Shown in pieces: positions 16,250-42,133 of a stretch of 64,000 nucleotides of DNA (the first letter of the stretch is position 1; each line of letters starts with the position of its first letter). The stretch is from Yuukianura sp. NJ FZ-2021. Lineage: Eukaryota. The notes beneath the pieces are model-generated. The model saw nothing but the letters and a program-made list of their open reading frames with translations, searched no databases and was not told the DNA's origin. The stretch lies in NCBI GenBank assembly GCA_046563655.1, contig CM102284.1:1860001-1924000 (forward strand), in the 5' to 3' direction. A program made the translations under genes and the position numbers.

Positions 16250-17682
16250 TGGTAAACATTGACCGCAAGTTGAAGTAAAAAAGAATCGCTTATAATACTG
16301 AACTAGCGTTTTAAATAAATGATGATTTCAGATTAAATCAGTACTCGATTCGTGGGATAAGCACTTACGATTTTGGAGAAATGCGCTAATAGTATTGAAA
16401 CATCCAGAAAATATTAGATTGTAGTGTTCTTTTTTTTCCCTTGAACGCAGTTAGGTTTCAGTAATCAATTTGCGAGTATTTTGAAAGAACTTTTATGATA
16501 AAACGGAATTATCAAAAACAAAATAATTCATCTAGTACATAACTTGCCAATGATGCCATCCATTTGATAATGATAAGTTTAAACTCTTTTAAGATTTATT
16601 TCCCAACGTATTAGAGAGTTATCCTGGTTTACTTTTAGTTAGTAGAAGTATTTTAATATCCTACTTAATTTTATTTTAAAATAAACCTTTATTTAAAATA
16701 TGAAAAAAGGAGATTCCAATTTAACTATGTTTTCAGTTTCTGTCTCAGTCAGTTGAAGAATAATGCTGTACCTCAGTTATCCTATTCAGCTTTTCAATTT
16801 AATGTAAAAGATATAAGAACTAGTGTAAGAATACAGTCGAGTTTCCCTTTTATTCCATTTGCCAAATACAAAACAAAATACAATTGAGAAGTACAAAACT
16901 CGCACCCGTACATGGGCGGTGAACTGGCAAAATGAAACGCCAAATGGCAAATTGGGGAATTGCCAATGACAATTTGACTTCAGACTCATGTAATTTTCTA
17001 ACCCCAGTGTAGTCCAATTGCAATTTGTTTTGTATTTGGCAAATGGAATAAAAGGGAAACTCGACTGTATCGTGTTCCTCATCTCTTATCTGCGTTTTTA
17101 GATGAAGAAGCGGGAAAAAATTGGAGGGTTTTTGTAGCAAAGTGGTTGAAAAACGGCACTATTAGCTCCTTTGTATTACGCAGTGCAAAACGGGTCCCAC
17201 CAAGTGAATTTATCTCACGATGTCATTATAATCTCTACCAGATACCAGATCAATGGCTGTGCTCTTTCGTACAAGAAAACTCTTGTTTGTTCTCAGTATT
17301 CTTTGCCCCCCCCCCTCCGCCGCACCTCACGGGCACCAAACGCTATCCACAAGGCAATAGGGCGATACTATCCCTTAGGTAGTGCCGGATGTATCATCTA
17401 ACCTAGCCTAGCCACCTATGTATGTGGTCGTGTAACGGTGTAACTACCAAAAATTATCAAATATGTTTTGTATTCATCCTTCACAACAACATAACATCGA
17501 ATTATAAATTAATAACCTACTGAGGTTACATTGAATGGTTCCAAGAGATGCAAAGATGCCTGCTTCCAACCAAATTGTTTACCTTTTCGAGGACTTTTAA
17601 TTTTTATCAGTAACGTCTGACATCAGTTAATTTAAGCGTTAAAGTTACAGATTCAGGGCCGCTTTGTTTGTTGTGACGTGCG

Positions 17683-18940
17683 ATGAGTGCCAGTGGTGAG
17701 GTGCAGGAGAAATGGAACTTGACCAAAGTTCATGAAATATCCAAGGACGATGTGAAACTCCGCAATTTTTTAGAGGCTAGGAATTTCCTGCCGAAGGAAC
17801 GTGCTTGTAACAAATGTGGACGGTTGATGATACAGTCGGTCACAGAGGGTTCTTGGAGATGTCGTGGGAAAATCGTTCGTCATAAACAGAAGGCGAAATA
17901 CTGCAGTTATAGTCAAAGTATATGGAAAGGAACGTTATTTTCCAAGACGAAGCTGTCCAAGCCGATGGTGCTCAAGTTGACGTACATGTTGGTCCGGAAT
18001 CATTTAAAGGACGACATTGATCACGAACTGATGGAGAATAACAAGCAACTTTCCTCTTCAACCATCACAAACTGGAGGAGACTTGTGAAAAAGGTTATGT
18101 TAATGTCGCTTTTCAACACTAAATGAAAGTATCAACCTAACGATGCCTAATAAAATCTTGTCTAATGCGAAATGTCTTATGTATTTCCCGTTACAGGTAA
18201 TGGAAGGTTGGGCAATAACATGTTCGGAGCGGATCGGAGGACCTGGAAAAGTTGTTCAGATTGAAGAATCACAGGTCGTAAACCGGAAATACATCAAGGA
18301 TTATCGTAAGAAACAACGTGTCGCCAATGCCGAGGATCAGTGGTTCTTTGGAGGAGTCGAACGTGATTCTGGCAAGGTATTTCTCGTGCCACTGGAGAAA
18401 AGGGATGCTAACACATGGATTTCCATCATAAAGGAGTGTGTTCTTCCCGGAACGATGATTGTTTCAGAGTGTTGGAACGCTTACCATAAACTGGGCCGTG
18501 AAGCGTAAGTAAAACAAAACGAACTTCATAAGAACCCACTAACTAATGAAAGATTGGTACAAAATTATTGCAGATATGAACATCTGACGTTGAATCATTC
18601 GGTAGAATTTGCTGAGCGTGGTACTAAGGATACTACAAAATCAACTGAGACTGCTCCGCACCATGACAAGAGGGTTATGCCAAACTATGACAAGGCAAAG
18701 GCAAATTATCCAGGTTACTTGGTACATTCCATGTTTTTGAATTGGTGCCAGGCAAACAGTGTTGATCCTTTCGAAAAGTTTTTGGACGAAGTCAGTCACA
18801 GGAATATGGACATCGTCCACGAAGAATTGAATGAAATTGACGATGAGGAGGTCGAGAAAGAAGATTTGACTGAGAGCTATGAAGTGGTGGAAGTGAAACC
18901 CGACGTAAAATTTCTCCTTGGTGGGACGTTCCTTGACTAA
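17683..18940 (+). CDS. Merlin / IS1595 (ISXO2)-like transposase-derived gene with degenerate DDE motifs (361 aa, 3 exons)
   Basis: Exons 17683-18093, 18197-18504 and 18574-18940 join in frame. Zn ribbon CNKC..WRC..C. Motifs IGGPGKVVQIEES, QWFFGGVER, RDANT...IIKECVLPGTMIVSECWNAY and YEHLTLNHS. AATAAA at about 19045. No TIRs seen. Confidence 0.85.
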
Positions 18941-19709
18941 AATTTAATTGTCTTCTGTACACGCGTTGAAAGACGTATTCATTACGTTTTTGTTTAGCAT
19001 ATAATAACTTTACGAAGAAGATTTTGTACTTTTTGTAAACAGAAAATAAATATTTTTTTATATTAATTCTCGTTAAGATTGTTTAACTTTTTTTTACTTG
19101 AACCTTTGCTCGAGTAGAAACAAAGAATCAACACGTTTACACAAAAGCGTTGTGCTAATAATGAGTTCAGTGTTAAAAAAATCCCCAAACGTTGTGTAGT
19201 ATCGGTTCACATAACATTGTACTACACTTATTAGTAGCTATTCAACCAAACAAAATTTCCGGTATTCCGGAGATTTACCAGTATCTCATCAAGAATTTTA
19301 CAAAATTCGCATTTGAGGGTCGTCGCACAATTCGCAAACATTTTACAATTGGAAAGAGAAATTGTGACTTCTGGCATAATGCGCCAGGGTAGTCAGAGTA
19401 TTAGTGCAGCCCCAAACGGGTTGTGTTTAGTACACTTTTCTAAAAAAAAATCACGTCACGGTAAAGATTTCATGAATACATTTCAATTTTTCCTTATTTA
19501 CTAAAATTCCAATTATTGAAACGCTGATAATTTCTTGTTATTAATTTACTATATAATACTGTTCTACGAAATTGCTGGAATCTAAGTGACAATTTTGGGT
19601 TTTCGATAAGTTTGTTGTTTACGTTGTTGTAAGTTGTCCAATATATTGAAATGAACCACCGAACTATGCAAATGCATTTTGATTTTTTAGATTGTTTGCA
19701 TAGTACGAC

Positions 19710-22700
19710 ATGGTGACTGCTGTTCTTCCGGAAGGTTACAAGTACCTTGTTGAGGAGGAAAAGTTTTCATCTACTACGAACTACGAATGTAGCCTCCGAA
19801 TTCGGGGAATGAAGACTGAAGAAGATGCCCGAGTAAGTTATCCGGTAATACCGGTACCGGTTGAATTAGTACTTGAGCTATGTTTGTTTTGTGCATTTTA
19901 CGTAACCGTTGCGTTTGTATATGCCCTGTGGAAACAACTTGTTACTAATTCCTCTTTTATACCCATTACGCCAAGTGAAACATGTTTTGTTTTGTTTTTT
20001 ACGCAGAAGTGGATAGAAAGCTTGAACGAGTGCAGCTTGGTAACCTGGAAAGTGCTGCGGACATATCCAAACAGCGGGAAAATAAACGTGTATAAAGGAG
20101 AATTCCGGTGTCAGCATCGTGTTCATGGAAAACGCAAGGATATCAAAAAGAGCAAGAACACCAATTGCCCGGCTCGACTTCGCGTATGTATTCGAAGGTG
20201 GGGAAGCAATGACAGCTTTTATTGTCATTTTGTAAATTAATTCCGCTTTTCTCGTTGTGTCGTTTTCAGGTATCTTAAATCTAGCAGTGCAAAGGCGCCA
20301 GGTAAGCCAGGAATCGTACCTACCTTGAACTCCCATTATAATAAGGGGACGACTACACCTGTTATCATTGATATATTTCAGATCCGTTGAACAAGTTGTG
20401 GCCTTGTATTGTTGAGTTAAAAAATACGCATAACCATGCAGTTGAATCAGCTGATTCACTTCAATATCGACCCGTCAATGATGCCACACGTAAGAAAATC
20501 TGTGACCTCTTCCAACTCGGACACTCTCCACAATCTATTACGGAGTCTCTGCGTCTCGACCTCCTCATTGACAGTCCAGACATGTATGAGGAACGGGAAA
20601 ACGATGCTTCGTACTGTCCCTTATCAGGATTTTGTTACCGCGAGTACATTCGGTCTTTTGGATACAGTTATCGGTATGAAATAACAAGTTTTGTGATACA
20701 AGTCGTGAAACCAGGATCTGATTTCCAGATTCTAGAAAAATTTTGTTTCCAGAGGGCGGCTGAGGAGTTCGTTACAAAGTGAACTCGAATCGCTTCTCGG
20801 ACCTTACATCAACGACAACGCTGGAGGTCGAGCCGTGATGTCTAGTGTTTCAGATCACCTCGTCGTGTGCATTTGTACTCCCATCATGCAAAATATTCAC
20901 TGCCATGTTCCTGAATCACGAAGTGTTGTCCACGTCCAAGTCTTTGGTCACCCGGATAAAAAGATAAGACTTTTTCTATTCTCAACATGGATTTCCATTG
21001 GAGAAGTTCCTCTTGGTGTAGTGCTGACTGATACCGAAGAACCCGAAGTTTTTGTAACCGGACTCCAGTTACTGAGAAGTATTCTTCCTTCCGGGTCGTT
21101 TTTTGGATCCAACTGGCCAGAAGTATTTGTTCTTCCAGACGACGATCCCAGAAGAAAGTTAGCAATGGAACAGGAGTTCCCATTTTCAATCATCCTTACA
21201 TCAAAAACTCATCAGCTGAGACGATTTCAAGATTTTTTAAATGAACCGCAAAATTCAATTCCTAAGGAATTTCATGCCGACTTGTTCAGAAAGTTTAAAG
21301 TGATGCTCAACTCACGGCCGGATGAATTGCTTACAAACTTTGAAAACGTAACGAACCATTCGGAACTCATCGAGAAGAAGTCGGGGCAACCCCAGCTTAG
21401 TGCATTCATGACTCAATTGTGGATGGACACCAATGGCTTTGCACATGTTGACAGACCTGGCATATTTTTAAATCCGCCCAGTGAATGTGCAGCTCCTGAA
21501 GGTGCCCAGATTCTCTCCCGCCTAATTTTGAATGAACTTTTTGACCGAGTCAAGTCCTTCAACCTTGTGCAACTTTCACATTTTATTATCCAAAATTTCG
21601 AAGAATTTTTGCGAAAACGTCTGAAAATGCCGTCATATACTGAATCCATGTTAAAAATCATCTTACCCAGCAAGGGCTCCACCAATTTATACAAAGTCAA
21701 GAAACTTGAAGACGGATTCTTTGAGGTTCCGGGTGACGACGGACCTGCTTTTGCCGACATGGATCTTCTACGCTGTTCATGTCAAAGGTCACGGTGTGCC
21801 CATTTGTCTGCGGTGATTCACAAATTCTATTCCACCAACATTCCATATCCGGTTCATCTCCAAGAACTTTACATTGACCTTGCTGGAGGAGACAGAAGTA
21901 GTATCATCAAAAGCAGTGGAAAAAGAAAACCGGTTACGCCAGTACTTCTTCCCAAACTTAAAAAGAACAAACTCACAACAGGTCAGTGTAAACTGTTGAG
22001 TTGATTCTAAAAAATGCATTTGTTTCATGTGGGTGAGGGTTGAGGGAGAATTTCGAATTTCGCAATTGTAAAATTTTGAATTTTGCAATTGCCAAGAATT
22101 TCGCAACTGCAATTTCGCCAATCCCATATTCCGAATCCCGGAAGAATTTCTTTTCTCTGCACTTTCACGTTTTTCGAACATTAATTTTTTTTTCTTTGCT
22201 ATTTCAGAACCAATTATCAAAGTTGAAAATGATCAGCAAGAATTTAATGAAGAAGGACAGGGGCTGATTGCAGAAATTTCCGATTGGTTACGACTTCAAG
22301 TTTCGAAGAATCCGAAGCGGTTTTTACCAGCACTCAAAGCCATGGCTCGGAAAGTCGAGTCAATGGATTCTGAAGCTGAAGCAGCAGCGGCCGTAGCAGC
22401 ATTCGGTTCATTCCCAAAGCCAATCCAAATCCGAAATACTCAAAACACAACGCCCGTTGTCAAGGATCCACTTCGACTTCAACAGACGCTGATTACGACT
22501 TCGCAAGTACTGGAACTTGAACAAGAAGATGTTGGATTCATACCGACACTGGACCAGCGTGGAGACGACCTGTTGGCGGGAATTTCAAACACTGCGACTT
22601 ACATACCACTCCAAGAAGTTCCTGGAGAAGATGGAAATCCTTCGTACTTTATACTCGTTTCAGAAGGAGATGAAACCATGAAGGGGCTGTTTGGCGGCGC

Positions 22701-22863
22701 AGGCGTAGTGGAGGAAGTCGTTCCGGTCATCTCTGCTGTCCAAAATTTCAAACCAGCTTCTCTTCCAATTTCAGTCGTAACGAAGCAAAAATCGATCATA
22801 AAAGCCTCAACTACTAAAAAGCAGCAGCAGGAACAGGAACAAGTTGTTAGGCTGTTGGCATAA
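19710..22863 (+). CDS. MULE/Mutator-like transposase-derived gene with SWIM zinc finger (6 coding exons)
   Basis: Exons 19710-19832, 20007-20197, 20270-20300/1, 20382-20673, 20753-21981 and 22208-22863 join in frame. FRCQH...KNTNCPARL...HNH (WRKY/GCM1-like DNA-binding domain), VPLGVVLT, PEVFVLPDD, FDRVKSFNLVQL, SWIM-like CSC...CAH. Probable 3'UTR intron at about 22876-22942. Confidence 0.8.
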
Positions 22864-23512: not shown

Positions 23513-24487
23513 ATGAATATTATTCTGTATGGAGCTCTGCTACTCCTCAGCGTCGTCTTAGCCTTGTCACTTGCAGGTAAATTTCTACTTTTTCAAAAGC
23601 CAAGAACAAAATTTTAGAAAAATTTTGAACCTGAAATGTTGGTAACTGCAAATTATTGAAAGAAAATTTTTTAATAAAGTTGTGTTTGAAAAAAATTAAC
23701 AAATATTTGTTGTGATTGTTAAACTGTCAGCGTGTAAGCACCTTTTCGTGGTTGTAAAAAAAACCAAACAAGTTTACAACTATTAAAATCACTTACTTTT
23801 CCACTTAACAAACATTGCCGTGCGGTAGGTAACAAGTTGAAGCAAAACGGCGAACGCAGTGTTGTAATTTTCTGGTTAGGTGAATCGTTACCTACTAATT
23901 TTCTATGCATAAGCATTTCATTTCGTCTTTTCCAAAAATTTTCAAAATTTCGTATTTTATTCTAAATATGGTTTGTTTTTCAGAAGAAAGAGCCCAATTC
24001 GTACCGGAATCCCAATACGATGGAGCCGTAGTCGATCCATCTACTGGAAAACGAACGAAGCGATACGCATCTCTCGCTTTTCTTACGGGAGTAGCAGGTG
24101 AGCAAACACAATTTTCCAAAAAAGTTTCAAAATTTTGAAATTTTTGTTGTTTAGTTATATAAAATACTGCTTATACAAATATTAATGGTTTACATTTTAT
24201 CATGTAAAGCTGGTGGCATCTTTGGACCAATTTTGTACAACCGACTGTACGGATGGGGCCGTAGCCGCGGAGGGCCCAGGATCGTCTTCTACAAAGGCTG
24301 GCGACCAGCTCAATCCGGATGGCAACAGGAAAGTTCTGGATGGCAACAAGAAAGCTCTGGAGGATGGCAAGAGGAAGAACAGTCGCAAGGATGGCAACCA
24401 GAACAATCATCCCAAGGATGGCAACCAGTTGAGCGGCCAAGCCAGGGGTCGGGGTGGCAAAGCGGACAAAGTGGTAACCGATGGTAA
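23513..24487 (+). CDS. Secreted preproprotein with furin site and GWQ repeats (151 aa, 3 exons), cuticle/structural-like
   Basis: Exons 23513-23576, 23984-24097 and 24210-24487 join in frame. Signal peptide MNIILYGALLLLSVVLALSLA, then RTKR, a hydrophobic segment, and six GWQ repeats. Confidence 0.85.
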
Positions 24488-25496: not shown

Positions 25497-26969
25497 TTAA
25501 CTTTGGTTATCGACTTCGTCTTGTCCAATTTCATCCATTTCCTGATTTTCGTCATGTTCACGTTGTAGTACTTTGTTTTTGAGAATAATTCCTTCTTCTA
25601 GGTGAACTCCAGCAGGAAATTCTAGGTTTTTGACAGCATCTAGAAAAAAAAAACAAAGAAAATTAGTGTTTCATTTGTTTTGAACAGTGGAAGTTGAATT
25701 TATGTACAAAATTGAGTTTGTCTTACCTATATCGCAGTGTTTTTTAATAAAATCGGTGCAGAGTGATACGATTGCTGCATGACCAGAGAATGGAGTTACT
25801 TTTGGTATGACAGGAACTATCCAGTTGACGGCTGAAGTGATCCATGAAGGATAAGCATACACAAGCATCGGAAGATCGCTGATGTCAGTGTGAGTGGTTT
25901 TTTTAATTGTGAAAACTTTTCGCTCCTCCCCTTCCTCTGCTTTGGCAGTCACAAATTCTCGGATTTTCAGTAACGATTGGTCGGAATGGAAGTTTTCCAT
26001 GTTAATGAATAGGATTGGTTGCTTGACTCTTTTGGCATTGAAGTCACGTAGACTAAACATCCAAGAGTCAAGGCACAAACCGACTTTGAGTCTCGGTTCA
26101 TCAGCTAAGGCAAACAGCACCGTAGCACCACCAAACGAGTGTCCAGCTACGATAATGTTGTCTGTGTCAATTTGACCACGAAACTGACTATAGTCTAGTC
26201 CAGGTACTCCGTTTTCGGCAAAAACGTTTTGAATTTTGGTTCCATCGTTTAAACTGTGCAGCATGTCAAGTAGTTCACGAATTTCTCTGACACGAGTGCG
26301 TAGCTGGACTTGTCGGGCTTCAAAATGTTCTGTACCTTCGTATGGACCGAATTCGTCCATTCTCCGATGCTGCATCCACTCAATGTCACCGTCCTCAGTA
26401 GGGTATGTTGTGGCATATGCTGTAGTGTCACGGTGTTCCAGAACTGAAATGAAGACAAAACAGGATAAGAATAATTAAAGGCAAACACTAATCTAAGTGA
26501 TGACCGTACTTGCGACGATGAAACCAAGTGAGGCCAATTGACTGCAAATACTGGAGTAACTCGTACGAATTGTTCCAAGTCCATGACAGAAGACAATCAC
26601 TGGCCAAGGTCCTGTGGAAGTACTCGGTTGAAGTAAGTCTGAGTTCTGAATGAATGGCAAATGCACGTCGTTTCCAAGACGTTGTAGAAGTTTGATCAAA
26701 TGGGCAGCTCGAGGCGAAAAGATCGATGTCATGCTGCTCTTGTACTTTGGATCCGGGTACCAACTTGGCCATTGCGCATGCGTACTGGTCAAATCCACAG
26801 TTTGATCTTTCGCTGGATACAGAAGCCGAACAAGTATCCCGTTGTCTGTACCAGATCCTGTCAAAATATCATGGACACCGATCACTGGATATTCACCGGA
26901 CGGTACTGGAAGATGAACTTTTCCGGAAACATATGGCAGCTTAGTGGGAAACTTTGAACTCGATGACAT
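25497..26969 (-). CDS. Platelet-activating factor acetylhydrolase family lipase (439 aa, 3 exons)
   Basis: Exons 26510-26969, 25727-26443 and 25497-25639. Motifs LVRLLYP, PVIVFCHGLG, LASLGFIVA.LEHRD, GHSFGG (Ser), LDSW (Asp) and THTDISD (His). Confidence 0.9.
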
Positions 26970-28485: not shown

Positions 28486-31400
28486 CTACACCCGTGCTTT
28501 TCCTTCAAGAATATTGTTATACAGTGCTAGATCCAGTAAAACATATTTCCCATTTTGTAGAAAATAGACTGGATCCTTGATTTTGGTAATGTCGAAACCT
28601 TCCTTTTGTAATTCAGTTTTCTTGAATTTGAACGTTCCTAAGATAAAATTTTTGCAATTTAAAGATTATATTTTAATTAATCTAGCTGGAATTTTTTAAA
28701 ATTCTACACTATACCTGTCATTTCGATTTCTTTAAGAACTCGAACGAAAAGCGGTCGAGCGTAGGCGGGTAAATCCGAAGCTAAAGTGGTCGCTAAAGCA
28801 TTCAAATCTACCGAATTTGTAGGGTCCGCAATTGCCGTCATACCCGCCTTTCCATCAGCACCTTTTGAGTGTAGAACGAAAGTTAGTCCAAAATTTTTAG
28901 GTTTCCGCGCTTCATGTTTAAATCAAATATACGTTTTTTTGAATTTGAGAATTTTACCGGGGACGGGCACTCCGTAGACAGTGGAGTCGCGAAGACCAAC
29001 GGCTTTGCTTACGACGTTTTCAACTTCAGCAGTAGAAACGTTTTCACCTTTCCATCGGAAAGTGTCACCTTGTCGATCCTTGAAGTAGAAGTAACCAAAC
29101 TTGTCACGCACCAGCAGATCACCTAAATTTCAAAAAAAAAAAAAAAAACGATTAAAAAATGATTCAAATTTTAAAATTTTAAATTTAGCGCTTCTTTTTA
29201 CTCTCAAACTAGAATTTTTTTTACCAGAACGAAAAGCCCTGTCGCCTTTAACGATAACATCAGTGGCAATTTTCTTCCGGGCGGCCTCTGGATCTGTGTA
29301 CCTGTTTAAAAAGATGTTTTTAAAATTTTGAAAATACCGCGGCAATTGAAACTAAGGTTGAGAAATGTCTCAACTTACCCCTCAAACGAACTATGGGCGA
29401 TTTTGTTGTTGATGATGCCAACGAGTTCTCCCGGTTCGTCAACTGCGCATTGAAGAGCTAGCCCAGTTTCTGGATCACGTAAAATCTCGCCATCTTTGTT
29501 GACTTTGAGCAAGTAGAATGGGAGGAAAGGAGTGGCCAATCGCGGCAAACACCCCACGGCTCCAACAGTCCCGTCACAATTCACTGCAACAAGAAATTAT
29601 TTGATTGGTGTTTTAAAAAATGTGTCCAAAATGTACATTTTGACAAAAAAAAAAGCTTACTGAAGTTGCAGTTTCCTTCAGTGGATCCATAAAATTCGCA
29701 AATATTTTTAACGTTGAAACGATTGACGAATTCGGTCCAAATTTCTGGACGAAGACCGTTTCCAAACATTGCGCCAACTCGGTGCTGTTTGTCCTCTGGC
29801 TTCGGTGGCTGCGCCAACAAGTACCGGCATACTTCCCCAATGTACTGGAATACCTGAGCATGTGCAAAAAAAGAAGTTATAATCATGAGTTACAAAATTG
29901 GAGCTTTAGTTCAGAGAAAGTGCTCGTATACGAAGAAATTTTTGTGCTCTTATGCATATATTGTGCTCTTGTACACAATTTTAAAATAAATCTCACAGTG
30001 GCGTCGTGTTTGATGCATTGTTGCCAAAATCTGGACGCAGAAAATTTCTTCTCGATTGCGACAGTAATGCCGTACTGAAGCGCTGATCCAATTCCGAAAA
30101 TTCCAGCGTTCGTATGATACAGTGGTAACGGAGCATAGACAACATCATTCTCTTTTGCCCCCGTAACATAGTGAAATGCAGTAGTAGTATACAGGTACCG
30201 AGAGTGTCGGATAACGGCAGCCTTTGGTAAACCAGTCGTGCCTACAAATTTAGAATATATACAAAAATATATAAGATATTATAAATATATATTAATATAT
30301 AAAGTATGTACATGTATAATATATTTTGAAAATTTCGGACACATTACGTATTGTGATATCAATATTATACAATGTGTTGTACCGGAAGTGTAAATATAGA
30401 AGAGTTTATCAGAGTGGTTCATCCGTACGGGTACAACTGGGGGTTTTGGAGAACTTTTGTTCAATTCATCCGCTAGGTCAACGGCTTCTACTTTCTTCTG
30501 CGCACCTTCTCCAGTAGTCGTAAATGAGTAAAACTTAAGTCCAGATTCCAACATTCCATTCTCCAGTAGTTCATCAATTGCTAAAAAATAGGAATGGTAG
30601 GCAAAATGAAATTTGGAACTTGAAATTCTCAATATGAAAACTCAAAGCTAGACCTAAGATTATGATTTTATGAATCATAAAATTAACAAAATTATGATTT
30701 TTCTCAATTGTTTTTTACCGCCATAAAGATTTCCTCCAAAAATAATGCCCTTGCAACCACCAGCTTTGAGACAATGTTGCAACGGAGCGAGACGTAAGTT
30801 GTAGTTAATCAGTGCTGGAACAACACCAATCTGAACATAAATTAGTCAAAAAGTTCTCAAATTTCTAATGTGAAATTTTTTTTGTTGAAATTTTTTATCA
30901 TGTTTTGAAATGCGGTTTACCTTGGCTAGGCCCACCCAAATGCAAACGAATTCAACTCTGTTCTCCATGTAGAGTCCAATCTGGTCTCCCTTCATAAATC
31001 CTTGTTTTTGAAAGTAGTTTGCAACTTGGTTGGCTTTGGCTTGTACCTATATTAAAAATAAAACTTCGTTCAAAATTTCGAAATTTTTTGTCACTTTTGA
31101 AATTTACCTCGCGGAATGTCCATTTCTCATCTTCAAATCGAAAGCAAATTTTATGTGGATGTTTCCTTGCAGTCATATCAAATAATTTGTCAATTGTCAA
31201 ATTTCGGTTTCTTATTATAGCTAATGCCAAGATTGCACGACCGCCTTTCCACATCATACTGAAAACGAAATGTTAAATTTTTAAATTTTCAATTTTCTTA
31301 AATCCAAAATTAAAAGTGCCCGCTTACTAGAAATTTTTAGTTGTGTTTAACAAAATGTTCAAATTACCTTGCATCTCGACGAAAAATTTTCCAGTTAACT

Positions 31401-32188: not shown

Positions 32189-34192
32189 TTAAAGCTTCAG
32201 GCTGTGCCAAAGTATTTTTAATTTGGAGTACCACGTGAGAAATAACTCAAAAACGAATATACAGAAGGAGGGTAGTGCGCATGCTGCAAAGATGAAAAAT
32301 AGAGAAGTGATGCTGTGTTGTAGGTTGAGTGGAGCGTACTTGAATGTCCGATGCATGAAATCTTCCAGAATAACCTTGTACTTTACTCCATAGTACTTCT
32401 GTTGCAGAATTCCAGAATGTTGAAGTGCCAAAAACCGAATGTGGAACCGTTCATCTTTGTCTTCGTCCATTGTGTAGATGGTCCAAGCCAAATTTCCTTT
32501 TAACAAATATTCTTTTCCATAGTAGATTTCAATTGACGGGTTAAGGCGATAGGCTCTCAGATAAAACTGGGCCAGCTCCGACATGTTACCTATGAAAATT
32601 CCCTTGTCGCAACGAATAAAATCCTGTAACAGTGTGTCGTAATAGTTCTCGGTAAAATCAAAATGCATACTTCCCATCCAGCTCTCATATCTTTGCTTTG
32701 CCAATTTGCTTATACGAGCTTTATCATACTCCAAAGTGTCTTGCAGATGAGCAATGAATTCGTTGAGTTTAAACGAACGTATTATGAAAAAGAGATCCTC
32801 CAAAGTTTTATTTCTCAACTCCGTTATTGTGGCGCCTGGCGGAACGGCTTGGCTTGTGTCAGTTAGTATTTTGAATCCAATTTGGATTGCTTGATCTACA
32901 GTTTCGACTGTCTGTGAAGGCAGAGGAGCCGTGAGGTCAGTGGTAACCATTCCACGGTAGTCGTTTGTCACTTGAAAACAACCGAAAACTAACGTGAATG
33001 CAAAAATGTGGAAAACCCATTTTTGTGATTTAGACGTCGGCAATTTCAGCTCCTGCTCAAATATAATAATGAACAAAAACATCCAGGCCGAGATAGCTCT
33101 TACTCCATGAAACCGAAACCAAAGCTCAACTAGGAGATAGGCGGCAATTAGCGTGATGAGACAAATTATCCAAACATCGTTACTTAGCGGTTGGGCATAA
33201 AACTTAAGTGAAAAATAAGACTGCGCTCCATCGCATGCTAGAAATTTGAATTTTGATTCCTTTGTAATATAGTGGTAGTTCCTGCCAGTATTCCCTTCAT
33301 CCAACTTCATCGGCACTTGTGCAATATTATAGTCACTAATAACTCTTACTGCTGTCCTAATGTTAGGCCAATCCCAGCGTGAAAATGAAATGAGTAACCT
33401 TGGCCAACCTTCGCGCTCGGATATTTGGGATATGTTATGCTTTTGAGGTTCGAATATTTGGTTCAAAAAGTAGGCATCTTTATGTACTGTGGTTTTATCC
33501 GTATATATATGACTTACTGTATTGAAATGGTACCTGTAGTAGCAGTTATCATTGATTGTAACATCGTGCAATATTTTAAAAAAACGACGAATGGAGGCAT
33601 TAGCCATTCGTTGTTTAGAAACCTCCAGTAGAACGATAGTGTCGCAGGGATGACGCACACTATAATATATTCTATAAATCGAATTTATTACTTGAACATG
33701 GTAGTGCACTTGAAAGGTGTATAAGGGTTGAGATTTCTCGTTTTCTCGCAGTATCTCGTCATGTATCCAAATCAGATGAGATGCAACACCTCGGCAATAA
33801 GGAATACCAACTCGTCCACGCGTGTACTCGCACGCATATATCCATTGCAGATGAGAGTGCAATTGTTTTGCCAAGTTCGCCGTCGGATACAACTGGATTA
33901 TGTTTAGATGGCACACGAGTTTGCGTGAATAGCGTGTCAAATTTAACTTCTGAATTGTTCTAGTAGTCTCCTCATTTTTGTTATGACCCAAGGAAATTAG
34001 TGTAACTGGTGATAGTATCAGTTTGTTAAAATGAAGTACTCTGCTATTAGTATTACTTTCCAAAAAGAAAATGAAATTGTCGCAGTTATAAAAGTCTTTT
34101 ACAAGAGCAGTAGAGAAACTAATTACGGAGTAGGATGTTGGCAAAATTGTAGTTTCGAGTGCTAAAACAAGGAGAAATATTTGGTGAGACAT
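32189..34192 (-). CDS. Divergent ionotropic receptor-like protein (667 aa, intronless)
   Basis: Signal peptide. M1 region QPLSNDVWIICL, pore FIIIFEQ, M3 NDYRGMVTTDLTAP, and late LQHSGI and PLNLQHSITSLFFI motifs typical of divergent arthropod IRs. Confidence 0.8.
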   Translation of the reverse strand: MSHQIFLLVLALETTILPTSYSVISFSTALVKDFYNCDNFIFFLESNTNSRVLHFNKLILSPVTLISLGHNKNEETTRTIQKLNLTRYSRKLVCHLNIIQLYPTANLAKQLHSHLQWIYACEYTRGRVGIPYCRGVASHLIWIHDEILRENEKSQPLYTFQVHYHVQVINSIYRIYYSVRHPCDTIVLLEVSKQRMANASIRRFFKILHDVTINDNCYYRYHFNTVSHIYTDKTTVHKDAYFLNQIFEPQKHNISQISEREGWPRLLISFSRWDWPNIRTAVRVISDYNIAQVPMKLDEGNTGRNYHYITKESKFKFLACDGAQSYFSLKFYAQPLSNDVWIICLITLIAAYLLVELWFRFHGVRAISAWMFLFIIIFEQELKLPTSKSQKWVFHIFAFTLVFGCFQVTNDYRGMVTTDLTAPLPSQTVETVDQAIQIGFKILTDTSQAVPPGATITELRNKTLEDLFFIIRSFKLNEFIAHLQDTLEYDKARISKLAKQRYESWMGSMHFDFTENYYDTLLQDFIRCDKGIFIGNMSELAQFYLRAYRLNPSIEIYYGKEYLLKGNLAWTIYTMDEDKDERFHIRFLALQHSGILQQKYYGVKYKVILEDFMHRTFKYAPLNLQHSITSLFFIFAACALPSFCIFVFELFLTWYSKLKILWHSLKL

Positions 34193-34779
34193 TTCTGCAT
34201 CGACTACCCCTTAAGAAATGACACTGAATTTGACATTGGCTTTCGTGTTAAGTGTGTCGTGTTTGCACCAATCTTGTTTGCAAAAAAAAAACAGAGAAAG
34301 GAATTTAGAGCAACTGTAATTGGTTTGTTGTTTATAATAAATTAATTAAGGTGAAATTTAGAACCAAAACGGTTTCTAACCATTATAGAGTATGGATATT
34401 GGAAAGTTTAAAAGTTTAGCATCTTGTCGTGCTATCCTTCCAATATTGCACAAAAATGTTTTATATATGTAATCATTGCAGGAAGCGTCGATTATGTAAG
34501 ATGTCGTAATCTACATTTACAGAAACTTTTTAAGTGAAACGTTTAAATTAAGTATATGTTCGTGTTCAGTTAATACAATACCGTAAAGTTTAATGTTGTT
34601 TAACAACCTCTGCTATACGTATTTGCTATTTTCGGAAATCCTGAGCTCTAGTATCAAAATACTTTATACAAATTCATTGTTTCTTTGGAACACCTAATTT
34701 CTAGTTCTGCAACTTTTACGTTATCTACTTTTTTTTGCAGTTTGTCAAATAAAATTAGAAGGAACGTGTTTCATTTTAC

Positions 34780-34932
34780 ATGGCTTTGAGAATGTTTCTT
34801 GTAGGAACCATTTTCGGAATTCTAAGTACGCCAACGTATTTACAGCTTTTGAGTACCACGTGAGAAGCGTCCCAGAAATAAACCTACAAATAGAAACTAA
34901 TACGCATGCGCCATAGACGAAAACAGCAAAAC
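34780..34932 (-). pseudogene. Relic 3' end of a paralogous IR-like gene
   Basis: Translates FAVFVYGACVLVSICRFISGTLLTWYSK versus SLFFIFAACALPSFCIFVFELFLTWYSK in the neighbouring gene. 16-nt identity gagtaccacgtgagaa at 34851 and 32226. Confidence 0.7.
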
Positions 34933-35133
34933 AATTAATTAATTTAATGAGGATTAATGAGTTACATTACGGTTTGAAATTTTGGTAATTTGGACACAAG
35001 CGAAGTCATGAAATGGTGAATTTATCTTGGCATACAACAAAGCGACTGGTTACAACTCAAATGGAAGAATTTGATTGGTTGAAGAAAGAATTAGTTTTAT
35101 TGGTCTATAAGTGTAGGCCATTTCAGTTTATAA

Positions 35134-35751
35134 CTAATAAGATTTATAACTTGGGTATGATGCTTTTCCTGGATTGAAACCTTTGAGCTTCCCTTTGACT
35201 TGTGTAAAAACGTTGTCCATAATTTTGAAATTGTCTGACCAAATGCGACTGTATCTTTTAAGTCGAAGTGTCTCGTTTAGAAGATTTTGGACGTCTGTTC
35301 CAAGCGGTATAATTTGAGCATGCATTCCTTGTACTTGTGAATAGTAGCTTTCGTAGTGCGTTTCAATGTAACCAATCCACTGGATGTTACTAGACGACTG
35401 ATACATCATGTTACCTAAAAAGCAAAAAATTTTGATGAAAAAGCGCCAACTTTTGAAAACGAGGACCTTTTATGAAATTTTAAACTCTGAAAACTGATTT
35501 AGTTGGTTACTTATTCTTTTGCTGATGGTATTAAGTTGTGTTTGGTAGTCTGCTGTCTGAAAATTTAAATGAAAAATATTGATTTCCAATTTCCTTTTAA
35601 TTCTCAAAAGTCAAACTCTTTTTTAAATGTTCAATTTTTTTTATAGTTTTTGTTCTAATTTAGAAAAACTTACCTGAAGGTTCACCTCATAAGTAAGCAA
35701 GGCCAAGCAGAAACTCAACTTCAAAAATTTTTGAGTAAATCCATGACGCAT
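35134..35751 (-). CDS. Secreted predicted coiled-coil protein, paralog P2 (134 aa, 3 exons)
   Basis: Exons 35674-35751, 35511-35556 and 35134-35414, phases 0, 1. Motifs YQTQLNTISKR and WSDNFKIMDNVFTQVK. Confidence 0.82.
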
Positions 35752-36035
35752 TTTTTCAATTTGCTTGTTTTCACAATATTTTCCTAATATGCTAAAATGA
35801 GCGGTGGAAATTTAAAGTAAGTTTTAAAAAAAGCTTTTTTTTTATGAAAAAAGTGGAAATTCTGTAATGTGAAATATTCTTTTGTTAACAAATTTCAAGG
35901 TATTGCAAATAACGCTCAACATGCAATTGGAAATTCATTTTGTACGCAAAACCCCAATTAGTTAACAACAATAAGCTACCTTTTAACTTTAAGGTCAATC
36001 AAATTGGAAAAATAGATTTGTTACAAATCGGGTGT

Positions 36036-36478
36036 ACATAAGTAGCGGAAAAAGAAATTCGACCTACTGCACTACTGAGAGTCGTTGTACAGCTGAAACC
36101 CGTAGAGCACAGTCAAGAATCTATTTGAAAGAGTGGCAAAGTACATTGACCTATGACTCGGATAGATGTAACTCAGGGTCACACCACATGATATACACAA
36201 ATGTTATTGATTGTCATGAGATGGACAATTTTTCGTAGACGTTTTTCCCCATGCTACCGGAGATAAAAACTGACGTGACCCTTGGCCCAGAAGAAGTTGG
36301 CCCGCCGTAGCATGATATCCAACATTCCAACAGCGAACATCCCGGCTTTACTTGGTGAAAACAGATTCGGAAATGTTGAACAGTTTACGCGATGACGCTG
36401 ACGGACGGATGGCTTGCTACAAAAACGGACAGATAGACAGACAAGGTCTACGCATAAAGTAGCTTTCGTACTTAATAA
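36036..36478 (-). mobile_element. Helentron/DINE-1-like non-autonomous element (HINE-like)
   Basis: On the minus strand it begins ttattaagtacgaaagctactttatg, contains a (gtct/gtcc)n microsatellite and ends gctacttatgtac. It shares these ends with the element at 37406. Confidence 0.55.
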
Positions 36479-36594
36479 ACAGTGTATGGAATTGCCATAC
36501 TTCGACTTAAGAATTACTAAATTTTGCACACAGACGCTAAGTTTTATTTAAGAAATTAACTCTTTTTTTTTGGTTTGACATAAATTTGAACATT

Positions 36595-37148
36595 TTAGAG
36601 CGGAATTTTAGTTTGAGCAAGAGGAAAGTCGACACTTCTTTTGATTTGTTTGAACGTAACTTCCATAATTCTGAAATTTCTGGCCCATTGATCGCTCTGC
36701 TTTCGTAACTTTTCAAGTTGTAGACGAGCAGTGTTGTAATGTGTCTGAAGTTGGTTTACTTTGGCGTTGATGGCATCGATTTGACTTGCGTACGACTTCA
36801 TTTCGCTCTGCAGTTGATCCACTTGACCTGAGTTCGAAGCCATTTGGTTATTCAAGTCGTCTAAAAAATGTTACACTAAAAGTTTAACTCCAGCCGCCAA
36901 TGATTCTAAATTTTAAAAATTATTTTTATTCTTACCCATTTGGGTGTTCAATTTGTCAATTCCTTGCTGGTAGTTCTAGAATATCAGATATTAATTAGTT
37001 TTCACTAATAAATTTGTGACTTACGTAGGTGTAATTGTGTTAACTGAAATTGATTTTGACAGAAGTTACATACCGTTGAGAACACTAATAAAATTTGCGT
37101 TAAAAAACAAAAAACAAATGCAAACTTATGCCACATAGTTGTGAACAT
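36595..37148 (-). CDS. Secreted predicted coiled-coil protein, paralog P3 (126 aa, 3 exons)
   Basis: Exons 37074-37148, 36936-36975 and 36595-36860, phases 0, 1. Motif WARNFRIMEVTFKQIK. Confidence 0.82.
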
Positions 37149-37405
37149 ATTTTCAGTTTCTTTTTTTTAAATGAACTTCTGTTTGAAAATTTGCACGTGC
37201 TTAATTTTCAGTAAAAGCTAATAATATGATCTTTTTTTTTACTAAAATCAGGAACCTAACCACCTTTTGTTAACTGGCATGCAATGCAGCTCTTGCAGCT
37301 TATTAATCGCTGACCCTGGCTAACAGTCACGTACTACCAAATTCTTTGAAACGCCAGTTTTCAAAAATATTAGTAACTTACATGCTTATTTTTTATTACG
37401 ACTAA

Positions 37406-37733
37406 TTATTAAGTAGCGAATGTCTGAGCTATTTTATGTTTTTCGTCAGTCTGTCTGTCCGTCCGTCTGCTAGTCGAGCTCGCTCTAGAACCACTGGACC
37501 GATTTTCAATTTGTCTTTTCAGATTAACTTCACATGGTCCAGGGGTGACTAATCATCTGATTCGACCGGAAGTGGACAACTTCCGGGTCAAAAGTCAAGG
37601 TCAAGTACTGTTTTGGCGGAATTCGGAAAAATTACCTTGTTGAATTGATTTCCTGTTTGACCGGAAGTGGACAGCTTCCGGGTTGTGCACTGCGTTTTTA
37701 ATTTGCTACTTATTTACGGCGTTTACAGCGGTT
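37406..37733 (+). mobile_element. Helentron/DINE-1-like non-autonomous element (HINE-like)
   Basis: Subterminal inverted repeats taagtagc / gctactta, a gtctgtctgtccgtccgtc microsatellite, a ccgatttt core, and two internal hairpins ccggaagtggacarcttccgg. Confidence 0.6.
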
Positions 37734-37987
37734 TATTTTGTACTGTTGGTCGAAATTAATACGACTTTGAGTTTGGTTTGAAAAGACTTCCGGCAACTTT
37801 TTGAAAATGATAGAAGAAGTACAAAGTACCAGATTCTCTGATAATAGATATGTGCCCACAACTCGGCCAACAATGATTGCAGTGTGAACAATTTACTGTG
37901 TCTTTAATGAAACAATTGATTTGCAACTTCAATCTATTTGTTAAATCAGGTTATGTACCTAAAAAGGAAATAGAAATACAGATAACT

Positions 37988-38876
37988 CTAGTTTTTGTTA
38001 TACTTTTTCTTGAGTTGGTCAAAGGCGTTGTCCATGAGTTTGAAATTTGCCGCCCAGATTTTGTTGGTTTCATTGAGTTGTGCGCAGATCGTGTCGATGT
38101 CCTTGAACTGCGCACTCATCGTCCCAATTTGCTGGTTAAACAAAGCAATCTCCGAGGAAAAGAAGGACAATTCGGATTGCAAACTGCTCAGAACGTAGTA
38201 GTTTTGCCAAATCGTACTGTACAGGGCGTCTATAAATAGATCGCACAGTTTTAGTTACATAGGGTATGTATATAGTGTATAACACATTTATATATTATAT
38301 AACACAGTTATGTATACACCAAATGATATATCAAATAGCATGTGTAAATAAATATGATTGTATGTATCAAGGGTCGTAAAAAAACAAATAGTTTATTTTA
38401 CAGCAGGTTGTCCAATAACTCGACTTTTTTAATTTTCTCAACTAATTTGCAAAACTTGCGTCGCCTTGCCTTTCTATTTGATTCTATTTGATAATGATTT
38501 GTAAGTAATTTAATAAGGATTAGGAGGTAAATTGTTTAGAAGAAGATTTTTGCCAACCCCGAGTTATTGGACAACCTGTTGTAGAAATCGGTTGTCGAGG
38601 CACCTTGCTATGTATTTTATAAATTTGAAATCATTCAACTTACTAACTTGGCTGTTGAAGTTGGTAATTTGTGCTTGCGTTTGATCCTAATGTTTAAAAA
38701 GTGTAACATATTGTTGTTTAACAAAAAACAATTTTAATTACAAACAATATTAATATAATAATTACCGTAGTAGTTTGGGTATGAACGATCGCGACTAATG
38801 AAAATAATGTGAACAGAATCCACAAATAGTTGCTCTTTTCGGGCCATGCTGTGCTGCTGGACGCAAAAATAACCAT
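37988..38876 (-). CDS. Secreted predicted coiled-coil protein, paralog P4 (131 aa, 3 exons)
   Basis: Exons 38766-38876, 38644-38686 and 37988-38229, phases 0, 1. Motif WAANFKLMDNAFDQLK. Confidence 0.8.
38401..38581. mobile_element. Tc1/mariner/pogo-type MITE (181 bp) in P4 intron 2
   Basis: 22-bp TIR cagcaggttgtccaataactcg (21/22 match) flanked by TA on both sides. Confidence 0.85.
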
Positions 38877-39263
38877 TTTGAAAAGTAGTTTTTTGAATTT
38901 TTAAATCCCTGCAGGTTTAAAAATAAAAAAAAATTAAAAATTCTAGATTTTTTTTTTTCGAAATGAGCCAATGAGTTATTGACTAGGCTAGGCTGAGAAT
39001 AAGCCAGCCTAATAGGAATTTACATTGAAACCCACTTACAACGCAAGCAATGTTTAATTCAATTACTGTCACAAATTATGTTGCACGACACGTTCTTTTG
39101 AATTCAAAATTTTTGAAAAACAGGAAACGATTTTCAGTGGGGCACTAATTGGCTGAATTCAAGGTTAACAATTTCACTAACTTCGTCATTAACATATTAT
39201 ACAGAATTTTACATTTTTATTTGTATTTTCTTTAGTTTTACAAAGACATTATATTAAGTTCGA

Positions 39264-39807
39264 TTATGACTTTGCTGATTTTGAACCTCCTGGCATAACA
39301 AACTCGACGTTTTTCCTGAGTTGTTTAAATGTCAGCTCCATAATTTGGAAATTTCGAGAATACATTTCATTTTGTTTGGCAAGTTTTTCAACTTGTAGTC
39401 TTGCGGTGTTGTAGTGAGCAGTTAGTTCAATTATTTTTTTGTTGGCGGCATTGATTTGTTTACCGTAGATGTTCATCTCATGGTACATTTGATTCGACTG
39501 ACCAGAGTTCATTGACATTTGATTCGTTAGTGAATCTAGAACATACAAAAATAAAAAAAAATGTTTTGGTTGGAAATTCAACACCAAAATCACTTCTGAG
39601 TCACTTACTTATGTTGTTGTTCAAAGTGTCGATTTTAGCTTGGTACTGCAAAAAAAATTAATTGTGAATATAAGTTACGGAAATATATTTATCCCATCGT
39701 AAATTCCCATTGTCACAACGTAATTACTTTAATTACTTTGGAATTACCTGACAGTATACGAATGTTGCAGAACAAAAGACACAAAAAGTTAAAATAGTTG
39801 CGTACAT
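39264..39807 (-). CDS. Secreted predicted coiled-coil protein, paralog P5 (122 aa, 3 exons)
   Basis: Exons 39748-39807, 39609-39645 and 39264-39535, phases 0, 1. HYNTARLQ.EKL.KQ is shared with P3. Motif YSRNFQIMELTFKQLR. Confidence 0.82.
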
Positions 39808-40327
39808 TTTGCGAATAATTGGAGTAATTTGTTAGCTTGAATTGACCGTAATATATTTACCACTTTTACACAATACGAAATGAGCATTAGGATTAAAATT
39901 GAGGGGAAAAAGTCTATTCAATAAGAAATTCTACAAAATGCAAAAAAAAAACGACCTTGCATTAGGTTTTATTATTGTCCAGTTTTGAAGTTGTAGAGCA
40001 TTGCATGACCAATTAACGTATAAAAAATTTTCTTCAAAACGCTGCTAATAGATCAATGATGGACGCAACGACAACTTCGCCGCAGTTGAACAAAATAAAC
40101 AGGTTGTAAACGGGGCGTAAGCAAGTAGCGAAAGATTCGGTGACGTTTGACCTACTCCACCGCAGGAACGCGAACAAGTTATAAGAAACATCCATGTAAA
40201 TATGTAACCATGAAACTCCGTCACCATGAAGAATTTATATTAAATAAATTATTGAAATTGTATGTATAAGCCTCGAGGTTTTGTAAGAATAGCACTTAAG
40301 TAAATTGTTATAACTAACTTTATAAAG

Positions 40328-42133
40328 TTAAGACTCGTCATCGTCCCCAGACTCTTGTTCTTCGATTTGTCCCGGAGGAGTGTGAATCAGACTTTCAAAT
40401 TCCTGGTCTCGTCTCCTCCGAGCATCTTCCCATTCAACGATGAAGAAAGTATAGGAACCAATGACACAAAAGAATTGCAAAATTCCAAGTTGAACTCGTA
40501 GAGACAGTGAGGATGAATAGAAAAAGGAAACTGCGGCTGCTCCAGATTGTGTAAATCGGAACAACGCAAATGCTGGAGCAGAGTCTTCCGGAAACAGTCC
40601 GCCGAGAATTGAATAGATTTGAGTGTTGAAACAGGAATCACCCAAGCCTAAGGCAAGTCAAACGAGTTCCATGAAACGCAAATTTTCAAACTTCAAAAAG
40701 GTTTAACGCATGCCCAGTGCAAAGATGACCGTTAACTTGCTTACCTAACAGAAAGGCACATAACATGGCCACACCAGCCGACGGTGGGAAGATGTACGAA
40801 AAGTCTTGCGTCGGACCGATTGGTGACTCATTTGGTAGATTCAAAAAGATTAAGAAAAAGGCGATTGTATGTGTTATAAATCCAAGCAAAATTATAGGAT
40901 CTCTTCCTTTCTTGACTGTTCGACTTCCAAGAAGTCCAAATGTGAAGCCGCCCATGACTGCAGAGCATAAAATATACTTGAATACATTATCTTTACTATT
41001 TGAATTGCGATTCGTACCTTCTCCAGCCCCTACGAGAATTCCGCAAAGGCCCACTAGACGTTTGGCTTCCGGGCCAAGGAGATTAGTGAATCCAACTGCT
41101 GCGGAATAGACACCAGAAAAGAAACACAGTTCGATACCCGAGTAGAGGAATGTCCAGAACAAAAGTGTCATTTCCCGCCGTGTGAAGAGGTGCAACGATT
41201 TCTTAAATGCGACTAGAGCACTTCCCTCAGCTGCCGGGTCGGGAAATGGCAGATCACCTGGCAGTAGGTCCACTTGTCGCCTGAAATGCAAAGGCTGTTG
41301 TGATTATTAAATTTTCAATGTACTGGGAAAGAAGATCAAAGCTCACATAGGTGCTCGGAGAAAAAATAATGCAAAGACACCAGCAGTGGCGACGGCTGTT
41401 AGTACGGAGAAAACCAAAGTTCGTGTTGGACCGTCAATCGTTGTTTTTCCTTCAAACTGCCAGAAGACAAAGGAGTTTCCTAGAAACATGCTACGAACAA
41501 CACAAAATCAGTTGACTAATTGAAGACTTTTAATTAGCTCGGTGTATAGGTTAAGTAAGAAAGTAATATACATGTTGTGATCATTACCTGCATTGCAGAA
41601 TCGCCCAAAAGATTCCAGAATTTCGACTCATCGTTTCTTTTGTGGAGGTCAGGGTGAGGTAGCTCCCTTGGGCAGTCCATATCACAGCAGCGCCGACTCC
41701 TAGAATCCCCGACATCAAGTAGAGGACCCATGCAATGGGGTAGAGGAAACTGGCGATGAACAGTGCGTACAGGATTGACCCAGCGATCATGGAACCCTTC
41801 ACACCCACAATAGCCACAATTGACGGAGCCATCCAATTGGCTATGGCAAAAACGGTGTAAATAATAGCGAGGGAGATGTAGCCATCTCCAATATGAATTG
41901 AATCCAAAACCACCTTTTCAATATTCCCTTAAAGCAATTCACAATAACAATTAAAGATTTTCCTGGAGTGACAAGCTTTTAAGGTTCTGATCATCATGCA
42001 ATGTCTCACCCAAAGTCTGGAATGCAGTGAATATCAACATGAATGCGAACGAGACCAGAAGCACACTTTGAAACTGACGATCGCCTGGACAGAAGTCGAA
42101 GGCCCGTAGCCGTGACCTCGTCCACGAAGGCAT
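40328..42133 (-). CDS. MFSD11: UNC93-like MFS protein (about 6 exons)
   Basis: Motifs FMLIFTAFQT, GYISLAIIYTVF, GVGAAVIWTAQGSYLT, SRNSGIFWA, GDSCFNTQIYS and SAPAFALFRFTQS. Confidence 0.9.

Follow-up and report, generated by a model that had tools for sequence, protein, structure and literature searches.

A tandem family of putatively secreted coiled-coil proteins in Yuukianura sp. NJ FZ-2021 and its relatives in springtails

Gene organisation of the locus

The analysed stretch, hereafter the window, comprises 64,000 nucleotides (nt) of contig CM102284.1 of Yuukianura sp. NJ FZ-2021 (assembly GCA_046563655.1, positions 1,860,001 to 1,924,000) and contains five genes, P1–P5, predicted to encode small proteins of one family. 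P2–P5 are located in tandem at 35.1–39.8 kb, and P1 lies at 9.1–9.7 kb, 25 kb away from this cluster. With moderate confidence, the products are interpreted as lineage-restricted secreted single-helix proteins that would form in-register coiled-coil oligomers and act as extracellular rods.

A stop-to-stop listing of open reading frames (ORFs) at 34500–40500 revealed four minus-strand ORFs with one common C-terminal motif. In a six-frame regular-expression scan of the 64-kb window, the strict form of this motif, W/Y/F..NF[KRQ].M[DE]..F.Q[LIVM][KR], was found at exactly five sites, none of them on the plus strand. When the last exons of P1–P5 were made into a profile and compared with 1987 six-frame ORFs, only P1–P5 were matched (E 1e-33 to 1e-42, the next match having E 0.71), and thus no further or decayed copies are present in the window.

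Each gene was modelled with three exons by reading of the minus strand, with exon ends assigned by script. All five models translate without internal stops, giving proteins of 145, 134, 126, 131, and 122 amino acids (aa) for P1, P2, P3, P4, and P5, respectively. The first exon ends in phase 0 and the second, a micro-exon of 37–49 nt, in phase 1 in every gene. All ten introns are of the GT..AG type and are 68–129 nt long, with the exception of P4 intron 2 (414 nt). The sequence AATAAA or ATTAAA is found 33–80 nt downstream of the stop codon in all five genes. The donor of P1 intron 1, GTACAA, is a weak consensus, and the neighbouring GT reads into a stop. The exons, last exons including the stop codon, are as follows:

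9595–9711, minus strand: P1 exon 1, 117 nt (39 codons, phase 0), ATG and hydrophobic leader, most hydrophobic over the 11 residues 19–29
9478–9526, minus strand: P1 micro-exon, 49 nt, bearing the Q..L..FN..V motif
9077–9348, minus strand: P1 last exon, C-terminal motif at 9128–9175
35674–35751, minus strand: P2 exon 1, 78 nt, leader, 26 codons
35511–35556, minus strand: P2 micro-exon, 46 nt
35134–35414, minus strand: P2 last exon, motif at 35194–35241
37074–37148, minus strand: P3 exon 1, 75 nt, leader, 25 codons
36936–36975, minus strand: P3 micro-exon, 40 nt
36595–36860, minus strand: P3 last exon, motif at 36640–36687
38766–38876, minus strand: P4 exon 1, 111 nt, leader, 37 codons
38644–38686, minus strand: P4 micro-exon, 43 nt
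37988–38229, minus strand: P4 last exon, motif at 38009–38056, N-x-T sequon six residues before the W
39748–39807, minus strand: P5 exon 1, 60 nt, leader, 20 codons
39609–39645, minus strand: P5 micro-exon, 37 nt
39264–39535, minus strand: P5 last exon, motif at 39315–39362

This organisation bears out the initial annotation, which had described four tandem minus-strand genes and a distant fifth of the same architecture, each with a signal-peptide exon, a 37–49 nt micro-exon, introns in phases 0 then 1 and a common C-terminal motif. Micro-exon genes of this kind surface in ORF-based tracks by their last exons alone.

Upstream of P1–P5 no convincing common word was found: one 7-mer occurs in four of the five regions at scattered positions, and no 8-mer is common to them. 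The long second intron of P4 contains a 27-nt inverted repeat (arms 38396–38422 and 38560–38586, 93% complementary, separated by a 137-nt spacer) that looks like a small hairpin or an insertion resembling a miniature inverted-repeat transposable element (MITE). Between P3 and P4 there are two 28-nt direct repeats (37561–37588 and 37656–37683, 95 nt apart, 93% identical), which may represent a short repeated element. Each copy is palindromic around GGAAGT...ACTTCC, and the pair adjoins a GACGGACAGACAGAC-like stretch, which recurs reversed near 36400–36470.

Heptad register and structure models of the predicted proteins

The portion of the proteins after exon 1 comprises 94–108 aa, with 12–24% Gln plus Asn, zero to three Pro and zero or one Cys, in line with the Q/N-rich, Pro-poor mature regions of about 95–110 aa that had been described at first. 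P1 and P2 are 36% identical, P3 and P5 46%, and the remaining pairs 20–24%. The alignment of P1–P5 is gap-free from the micro-exon to the C-terminal motif, and the micro-exon motif, Q..[IL]..[ILF][NS]..[IVM], is located exactly 69 residues ahead of the Trp/Tyr of the C-terminal motif in all five proteins.

What had been noticed as heptad-like spacing is a single heptad register, which spans 86–90 residues in each of the five proteins and continues without a break across the junction of exons 2 and 3, thus providing independent support for the splice models. In each protein, 19–22 of the 25–26 a/d positions are occupied by I, L, M, F, V, W, or Y, and none of 2000 shuffles per protein attained the register score or the Fourier power at 3.5 residues. 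The periodicity power is 1.9–3.35 at 3.5 residues, as compared with 0.06–0.59 at 3.6 and 3.67 residues.

Taken over P1–P5, position a is I, V, or T at 26 of 62 sites, position d is Leu at 20 of 65, and Ala is found at 3 of the 127 a/d positions; I/V/T at a combined with Leu at d is a classical coiled-coil core. The series of residues at the d positions is nearly identical across the five proteins and includes an Asn at one d position that forms an invariant column of the alignment. The C-terminal motif is read in the same register as Leu(d), Asn/Ser(a), Trp(d), Asn(g), Phe(a), Met(d), Phe(a), and Leu/Ile/Val(d), followed by Lys/Arg.

AlphaFold2 models, obtained with small family alignments, present the last exon of P3 as one continuous helix (residues 2–77, predicted local distance difference test score, pLDDT, 88.9) and the last exon of P2 likewise (residues 2–75, pLDDT 83.4). 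A complex prediction for two copies of P3 residues 1–80 gave a score of 0.01 against a mark of 0.32, which is evidence neither for nor against binding. In the ESM Atlas, the Folsomia candida relative P0057 (see below) has generic long-helix structural neighbours only, and the feature scores for P3 (0.87 at most) are below the usable level.

Relatives, subfamilies and comparison with known families

A search of 1.84 billion cluster representatives with the five-sequence profile (hmmsearch, E ≤1e-3) yielded 62 matches, comprising 30 proteins that bear the motif and 32 long unrelated coiled-coil proteins; no candidate homologue was returned when the P3 last exon by itself served as query in a word-indexed search. 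In the wider family the motif takes the form W/Y..N[FW]..[MV][DEN]..F..[LIV][KR], placed after the Leu and Asn/Ser core layers, and it is present in this form in all five window proteins and in these 30 matches, which are here grouped as a 'Trp-Asn-Phe clasp' coiled-coil family. The statement of the initial annotation that the family has no recognised homolog can therefore be retained for characterised families in Pfam and the Protein Data Bank (PDB), and has to be given up for sequence collections at large.

The relatives include three uncharacterised proteins of F. candida, LOC118437711 (P0057), LOC118437677 (P0063), and LOC118439419 (P0064), an unnamed protein of Allacma fusca (P0016), proteins from Joint Genome Institute (JGI) metagenomes (P0001, P0002, P0007, and P0051), and one from Logan assemblies (P0028). 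The organism was traced for four proteins and the type of source, JGI or Logan, for five more. All named source organisms are springtails, and the family is apparently, if provisionally, springtail-specific. F. candida and A. fusca belong to two distant springtail orders.

The motif-bearing relatives form two groups, the window-like a-type and the b-type. Proteins of the b-type are 140–208 aa long where complete, and their motif reads Val-Asn-x-Thr where that of the a-type has Met-Asp/Glu. A single register runs from the leader to the motif in 13 of the 14 b-type proteins examined (at least 0.67 of the a/d positions hydrophobic when the register is fixed from the motif). The named F. candida and A. 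fusca proteins, matched by the window family profile at E 1e-4 to 1e-7 and compared here as proteins, resemble P1–P5 in having a hydrophobic leader, no Pfam domain and one heptad register leading to the same C-terminal core, Asn-x-x-Trp-x-x-Asn-Phe/Trp-...-Phe-...-Leu-Lys/Arg. Unlike the window proteins, they are longer (160–208 aa, about 16–19 heptads), continue past the motif with a hydrophobic tail and form a separate clade (96/91). In six b-type proteins (P0017, P0021, P0022, P0034, P0036, and P0051) the hydrophobic tail is followed by one or two basic residues and a terminal Gly, an ending absent from the window proteins, which could be due to chance or could be a processing or amidation-type signal.

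A maximum-likelihood tree of 34 rows, with three short fragments left out, contains an a-type clade (96/91) with P4-type (100/98), P1/P2-type (95/86), and P3/P5-type (91/97) subfamilies, each of which includes sequences from other sources. P1 and P2 (97/83), as well as P3 and P5 (94/89), are sister pairs, so that the tree agrees with the pairwise identities and with the earlier division into P1/P2, P3/P5, and a separate P4. The tree thus shows three old subfamilies, with the pairs P1+P2 and P3+P5 as products of later duplications.

Another instance of this gene structure is found on a metagenome contig, L001 (4558 bp), where a P4-like and a P2-like gene lie in tandem on one strand:

338–403, 796–838, and 925–1172 of L001: exons of the P4-like gene, with a micro-exon of 43 nt as in P4
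2112–2171, 2235–2301, and 2367–2641 of L001: exons of the P2-like gene

Both genes have a hydrophobic leader and GT..AG introns in phases 0 then 1, and their last exons are 55% identical to that of P4 and 48% identical to that of P2, respectively. At the nucleotide level, the window and L001 are about as alike as shuffled sequences in both exons and introns, and the divergence is thus saturated.

The presence of signal peptides in P1–P5 was judged from their hydrophobic N-termini: exon 1 of each gene encodes a hydrophobic stretch, with a best 11-residue Kyte-Doolittle window of 2.06–2.89. In addition, N-x-[ST] sequons whose middle residue varies occupy fixed positions relative to the C-terminal motif, namely +8 in all 17 b-type proteins, where the sequon is part of the Val-Asn-x-Thr of the motif, and also at −6 in all five P4-type proteins and at −12 in five P1/P2-type proteins (P0001, P0003, P0010, P1, and P2). 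A fixed Asn and Thr/Ser around a free middle residue would be the look of a glycosylation site in use, and the conservation of these N-glycosylation sequons supports secretion of the family. Signal-peptide cleavage and glycosylation of P1–P5 are predicted from these features.

In Pfam, P1–P5 give sub-threshold matches to generic coiled-coil families only. A scan of 35 aligned members weakly matched 199 families, each by ten members at most and in the rod only (best E 4.3e-05), and none among the matches listed (e.g. BLOC1_2, NPV_P10, Fib_alpha, FlaC_arch, and DUF4665) reached the curated gathering cut-off. DUF4665 was considered and rejected, with E 0.008 and 17 bits for P1 against a cut-off of 27 bits, E 0.09 for P0057, and a place outside the 25 most-matched families. 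In the PDB, the rod part of the family profile matches phage P22 gp26, reovirus sigma-1, trimeric autotransporter stalks, and Lpp (E 4e-8 to 4e-4). These matches, mostly trimeric coiled coils, span profile positions from about 20 to 99 and never the C-terminal motif, and they appear to reflect compositional resemblance, not homology. A motif-only profile found nothing significant in the PDB; the entries 9h9q_E, a Mto2p-binding-domain protein (E 0.033 over 18 residues), and 6tg5_A (E 0.36) were treated as chance. Among viral contigs P0022 has no relative, and the one candidate, L002, proved to be a chance match, 30 residues long and lying in an alternative frame of 47 aa within an ORF of 368 aa. 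A full-text literature search on springtail secreted and coiled-coil proteins and on the F. candida loci, which covered article texts, returned no paper on the family. Secreted coiled coils are a known kind of molecule, and this family is one for which the searches described here found no Pfam model, solved relative or paper in the article texts covered.

Among known systems, the silk fibroins of bees, ants, and hornets are secreted coiled coils encoded by a tandem cluster of about four diverged paralogs, which are expressed in the silk (labial) gland. Their genes lack introns, and their core comprises about 210 residues and is rich in Ala at a/d positions; the proteins occur in fibres. The window family resembles them in being a tandem cluster of diverged paralogs for coiled-coil proteins that are putatively secreted, and differs in its rod of 86–90 residues, the rarity of Ala in the core and its three-exon genes; no sequence similarity to silk fibroins was found in any Pfam or profile search made. 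The P22 tail needle gp26, reovirus sigma-1, autotransporter stalks, and Braun lipoprotein Lpp resemble the window rod in their polar, N/Q/S/T-rich heptads. Laminin and fibrinogen are heterotrimeric coiled coils built of three diverged chain types of matched length. By analogy they may serve as a model for a heterotrimeric assembly of the window proteins; unlike these, laminin and fibrinogen are of large, multidomain build and contain disulphide knots. The Pfam family Fib_alpha is matched below threshold by seven of 35 members (best E 0.004). Apolipophorin-III and other exchangeable apolipoproteins are bundles of several amphipathic helices with the Pfam signature ApoLp-III, whereas the window models are single continuous helices with a periodicity of 3.5 rather than 3.67 and no Pfam match.

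The flanking genes with recognised domains are ordinary animal genes:

3176–3760, minus strand: molybdopterin cofactor-binding domain (MoCoBD_2), Pfam E 9.8e-15
25674–26474, minus strand: platelet-activating factor (PAF) acetylhydrolase, Pfam E 1.7e-42
29886–30278, minus strand: AMP-binding enzyme, Pfam E 5.5e-13
40328–41928, minus strand: UNC-93, Pfam E 2.5e-32

Directly downstream of P2, an uninterrupted minus-strand ORF of 673 aa (32192–34210) has several hydrophobic segments and matches no Pfam family at E ≤1e-4. On the plus strand, a run of long ORFs (149–422 aa) at 17677–22863, one of them with a Cys/His-rich C-terminal part, may by its look belong to a transposable element; two of these ORFs were compared with Pfam and gave no match at E ≤1e-4. 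Another plus-strand ORF, at 24155–24487, begins with hydrophobic residues, continues with GWQ / Q-E-S-S-G-W-Q repeats, has no Pfam match, and may encode another small low-complexity secreted protein.

Proposed assembly and alternative explanations

In the coiled-coil rod model, the proteins would enter the secretory pathway via the N-terminal signal peptide, and after its cleavage each would form one uninterrupted alpha-helix of about 12 heptads and about 13 nm, as calculated for 88 residues with a rise of about 0.15 nm. Its C-terminal end would be the invariant core series Leu(d)-Asn/Ser(a)-Trp(d)-Phe(a)-Met(d)-Phe(a)-Leu(d), after which come basic residues and a brief tail that differs between subfamilies. 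Most probably, such helices would pack laterally, with parallel orientation and matched register, to give coiled-coil oligomers, with the polar layer of Asn(d) and the C-terminal aromatic clasp fixing register and stoichiometry. The outcome would be short rigid extracellular rods that are part of a secreted matrix or fluid, and the architecture suggests a role as a matrix or secretion component.

Several observations weigh against this model. P1–P5 are predicted genes whose exon models, like the proposed oligomerisation, are read from sequence alone, and monomer models cannot show oligomers. The hydrophobic stretch of P2 is short and has a Lys inside, the N-regions of P4 and P1 are long, and the P3/P5-type proteins, including P3 and P5 themselves, carry no sequon. 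Relative to P4, one residue is inserted in the P4-like protein of L001, indicating that the rod length is not absolutely fixed. The designation of the family as springtail-specific is provisional because source organisms were traced for four proteins only. The cues to the oligomeric state also conflict: under Harbury-type a/d rules I/V at a with Leu at d is a dimer cue, and Asn at d is a trimer cue, to which the predominance of trimers among the PDB matches of the rod profile can be added.

The helices could also be chains of an obligate hetero-oligomer, with the P4-type, P1/P2-type, and P3/P5-type subfamilies supplying different chains, as in laminin, fibrinogen, or the four bee-silk paralogs. 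This arrangement, a specific form of the hetero-oligomeric assembly (such as a fibre, glue, or spermatophore material) proposed when the family was first noticed, is rather unlikely. The three subfamilies are well supported and each has members from other sources, the rod length of 69 residues is kept by all five paralogs despite identities of 20–46%, and P4-like and P2-like genes are adjacent in L001 too. Three old subfamilies with equal rod length and a nearly identical d-layer series are compatible with mixed assemblies. However, homo-oligomers descended from one ancestor would be just as likely to show equal length and conserved core layers, P1 is located 25 kb away from the cluster, and no k-mer suggestive of co-regulation is common to the upstream regions. 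It is improbable, and to be regarded as speculation, that a heterotrimeric rod of fixed length is obligately assembled from the three subfamilies as its A, B, and C chains, is locked in register by Asn(d) and the Trp/Phe/Met/Phe clasp, and is used to build an extracellular material specific to springtails, such as a patterned epicuticle, an egg envelope, or a hardening secretion.

Another explanation, also improbable, is that the proteins are monomeric or surface-active amphipathic helices which bind lipid, membrane, or a polyanionic surface via their Trp/Phe/Lys-rich C-terminus; they would then resemble antimicrobial peptides or exchangeable apolipoproteins and would not form coiled coils. 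The C-terminal Trp, Phe, Met, and Phe, accompanied by extra hydrophobic residues at c positions and followed by a Lys/Arg cluster, would fit such a function, and the monomer models are isolated helices. The hydrophobic stripe, however, is narrow, being confined to a and d, and is strictly 3.5-periodic over about 88 residues with almost no power at 3.6–3.67, the periodicity of apolipoprotein-like and late embryogenesis abundant (LEA)-like helices. No match to ApoLp-III or a similar Pfam family was obtained.

Small, putatively secreted proteins encoded by a tandemly duplicating, fast-diverging cluster, with P1+P2 and P3+P5 as recent duplicates and high divergence between paralogs, could also be soluble signalling or reproductive proteins (components of seminal or spermatophore fluid, pheromone carriers, or immune-induced peptides), with the helix acting as a ligand and not as a structural element. 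This seems quite improbable: the strong conservation of core layers and rod length is not typical of fast-evolving reproductive proteins, and the wider family is present in F. candida, a parthenogenetic species, which argues against a purely spermatophore role for it. The idea that the proteins are helical effectors, raised when the family was first noticed, found no support. Finally, it is very unlikely that the genes are non-functional, being unexpressed or decaying ORFs or products of faulty exon models, for which the P1 donor GTACAA could be cited: none of the five frames is interrupted, the splice sites are canonical, poly(A) signals are present, the heptad register continues across the junctions, the three-exon structure is kept in the contig of another species (L001), and full-length annotated relatives are present in two springtail genomes.

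The family is unusually simple, consisting of a leader, one helix and a clasp, and its conserved series of core layers together with the fixed 69-residue length makes it an attractive natural model for coiled-coil register and chain choice. If the heterotrimer were true, it would be a minimal single-domain counterpart of the heterotrimers of laminin or fibrinogen type. If the proteins are indeed components of the cuticle, egg, or a secretion, they would provide a molecular handle on springtail materials that have been studied mainly by microscopy.

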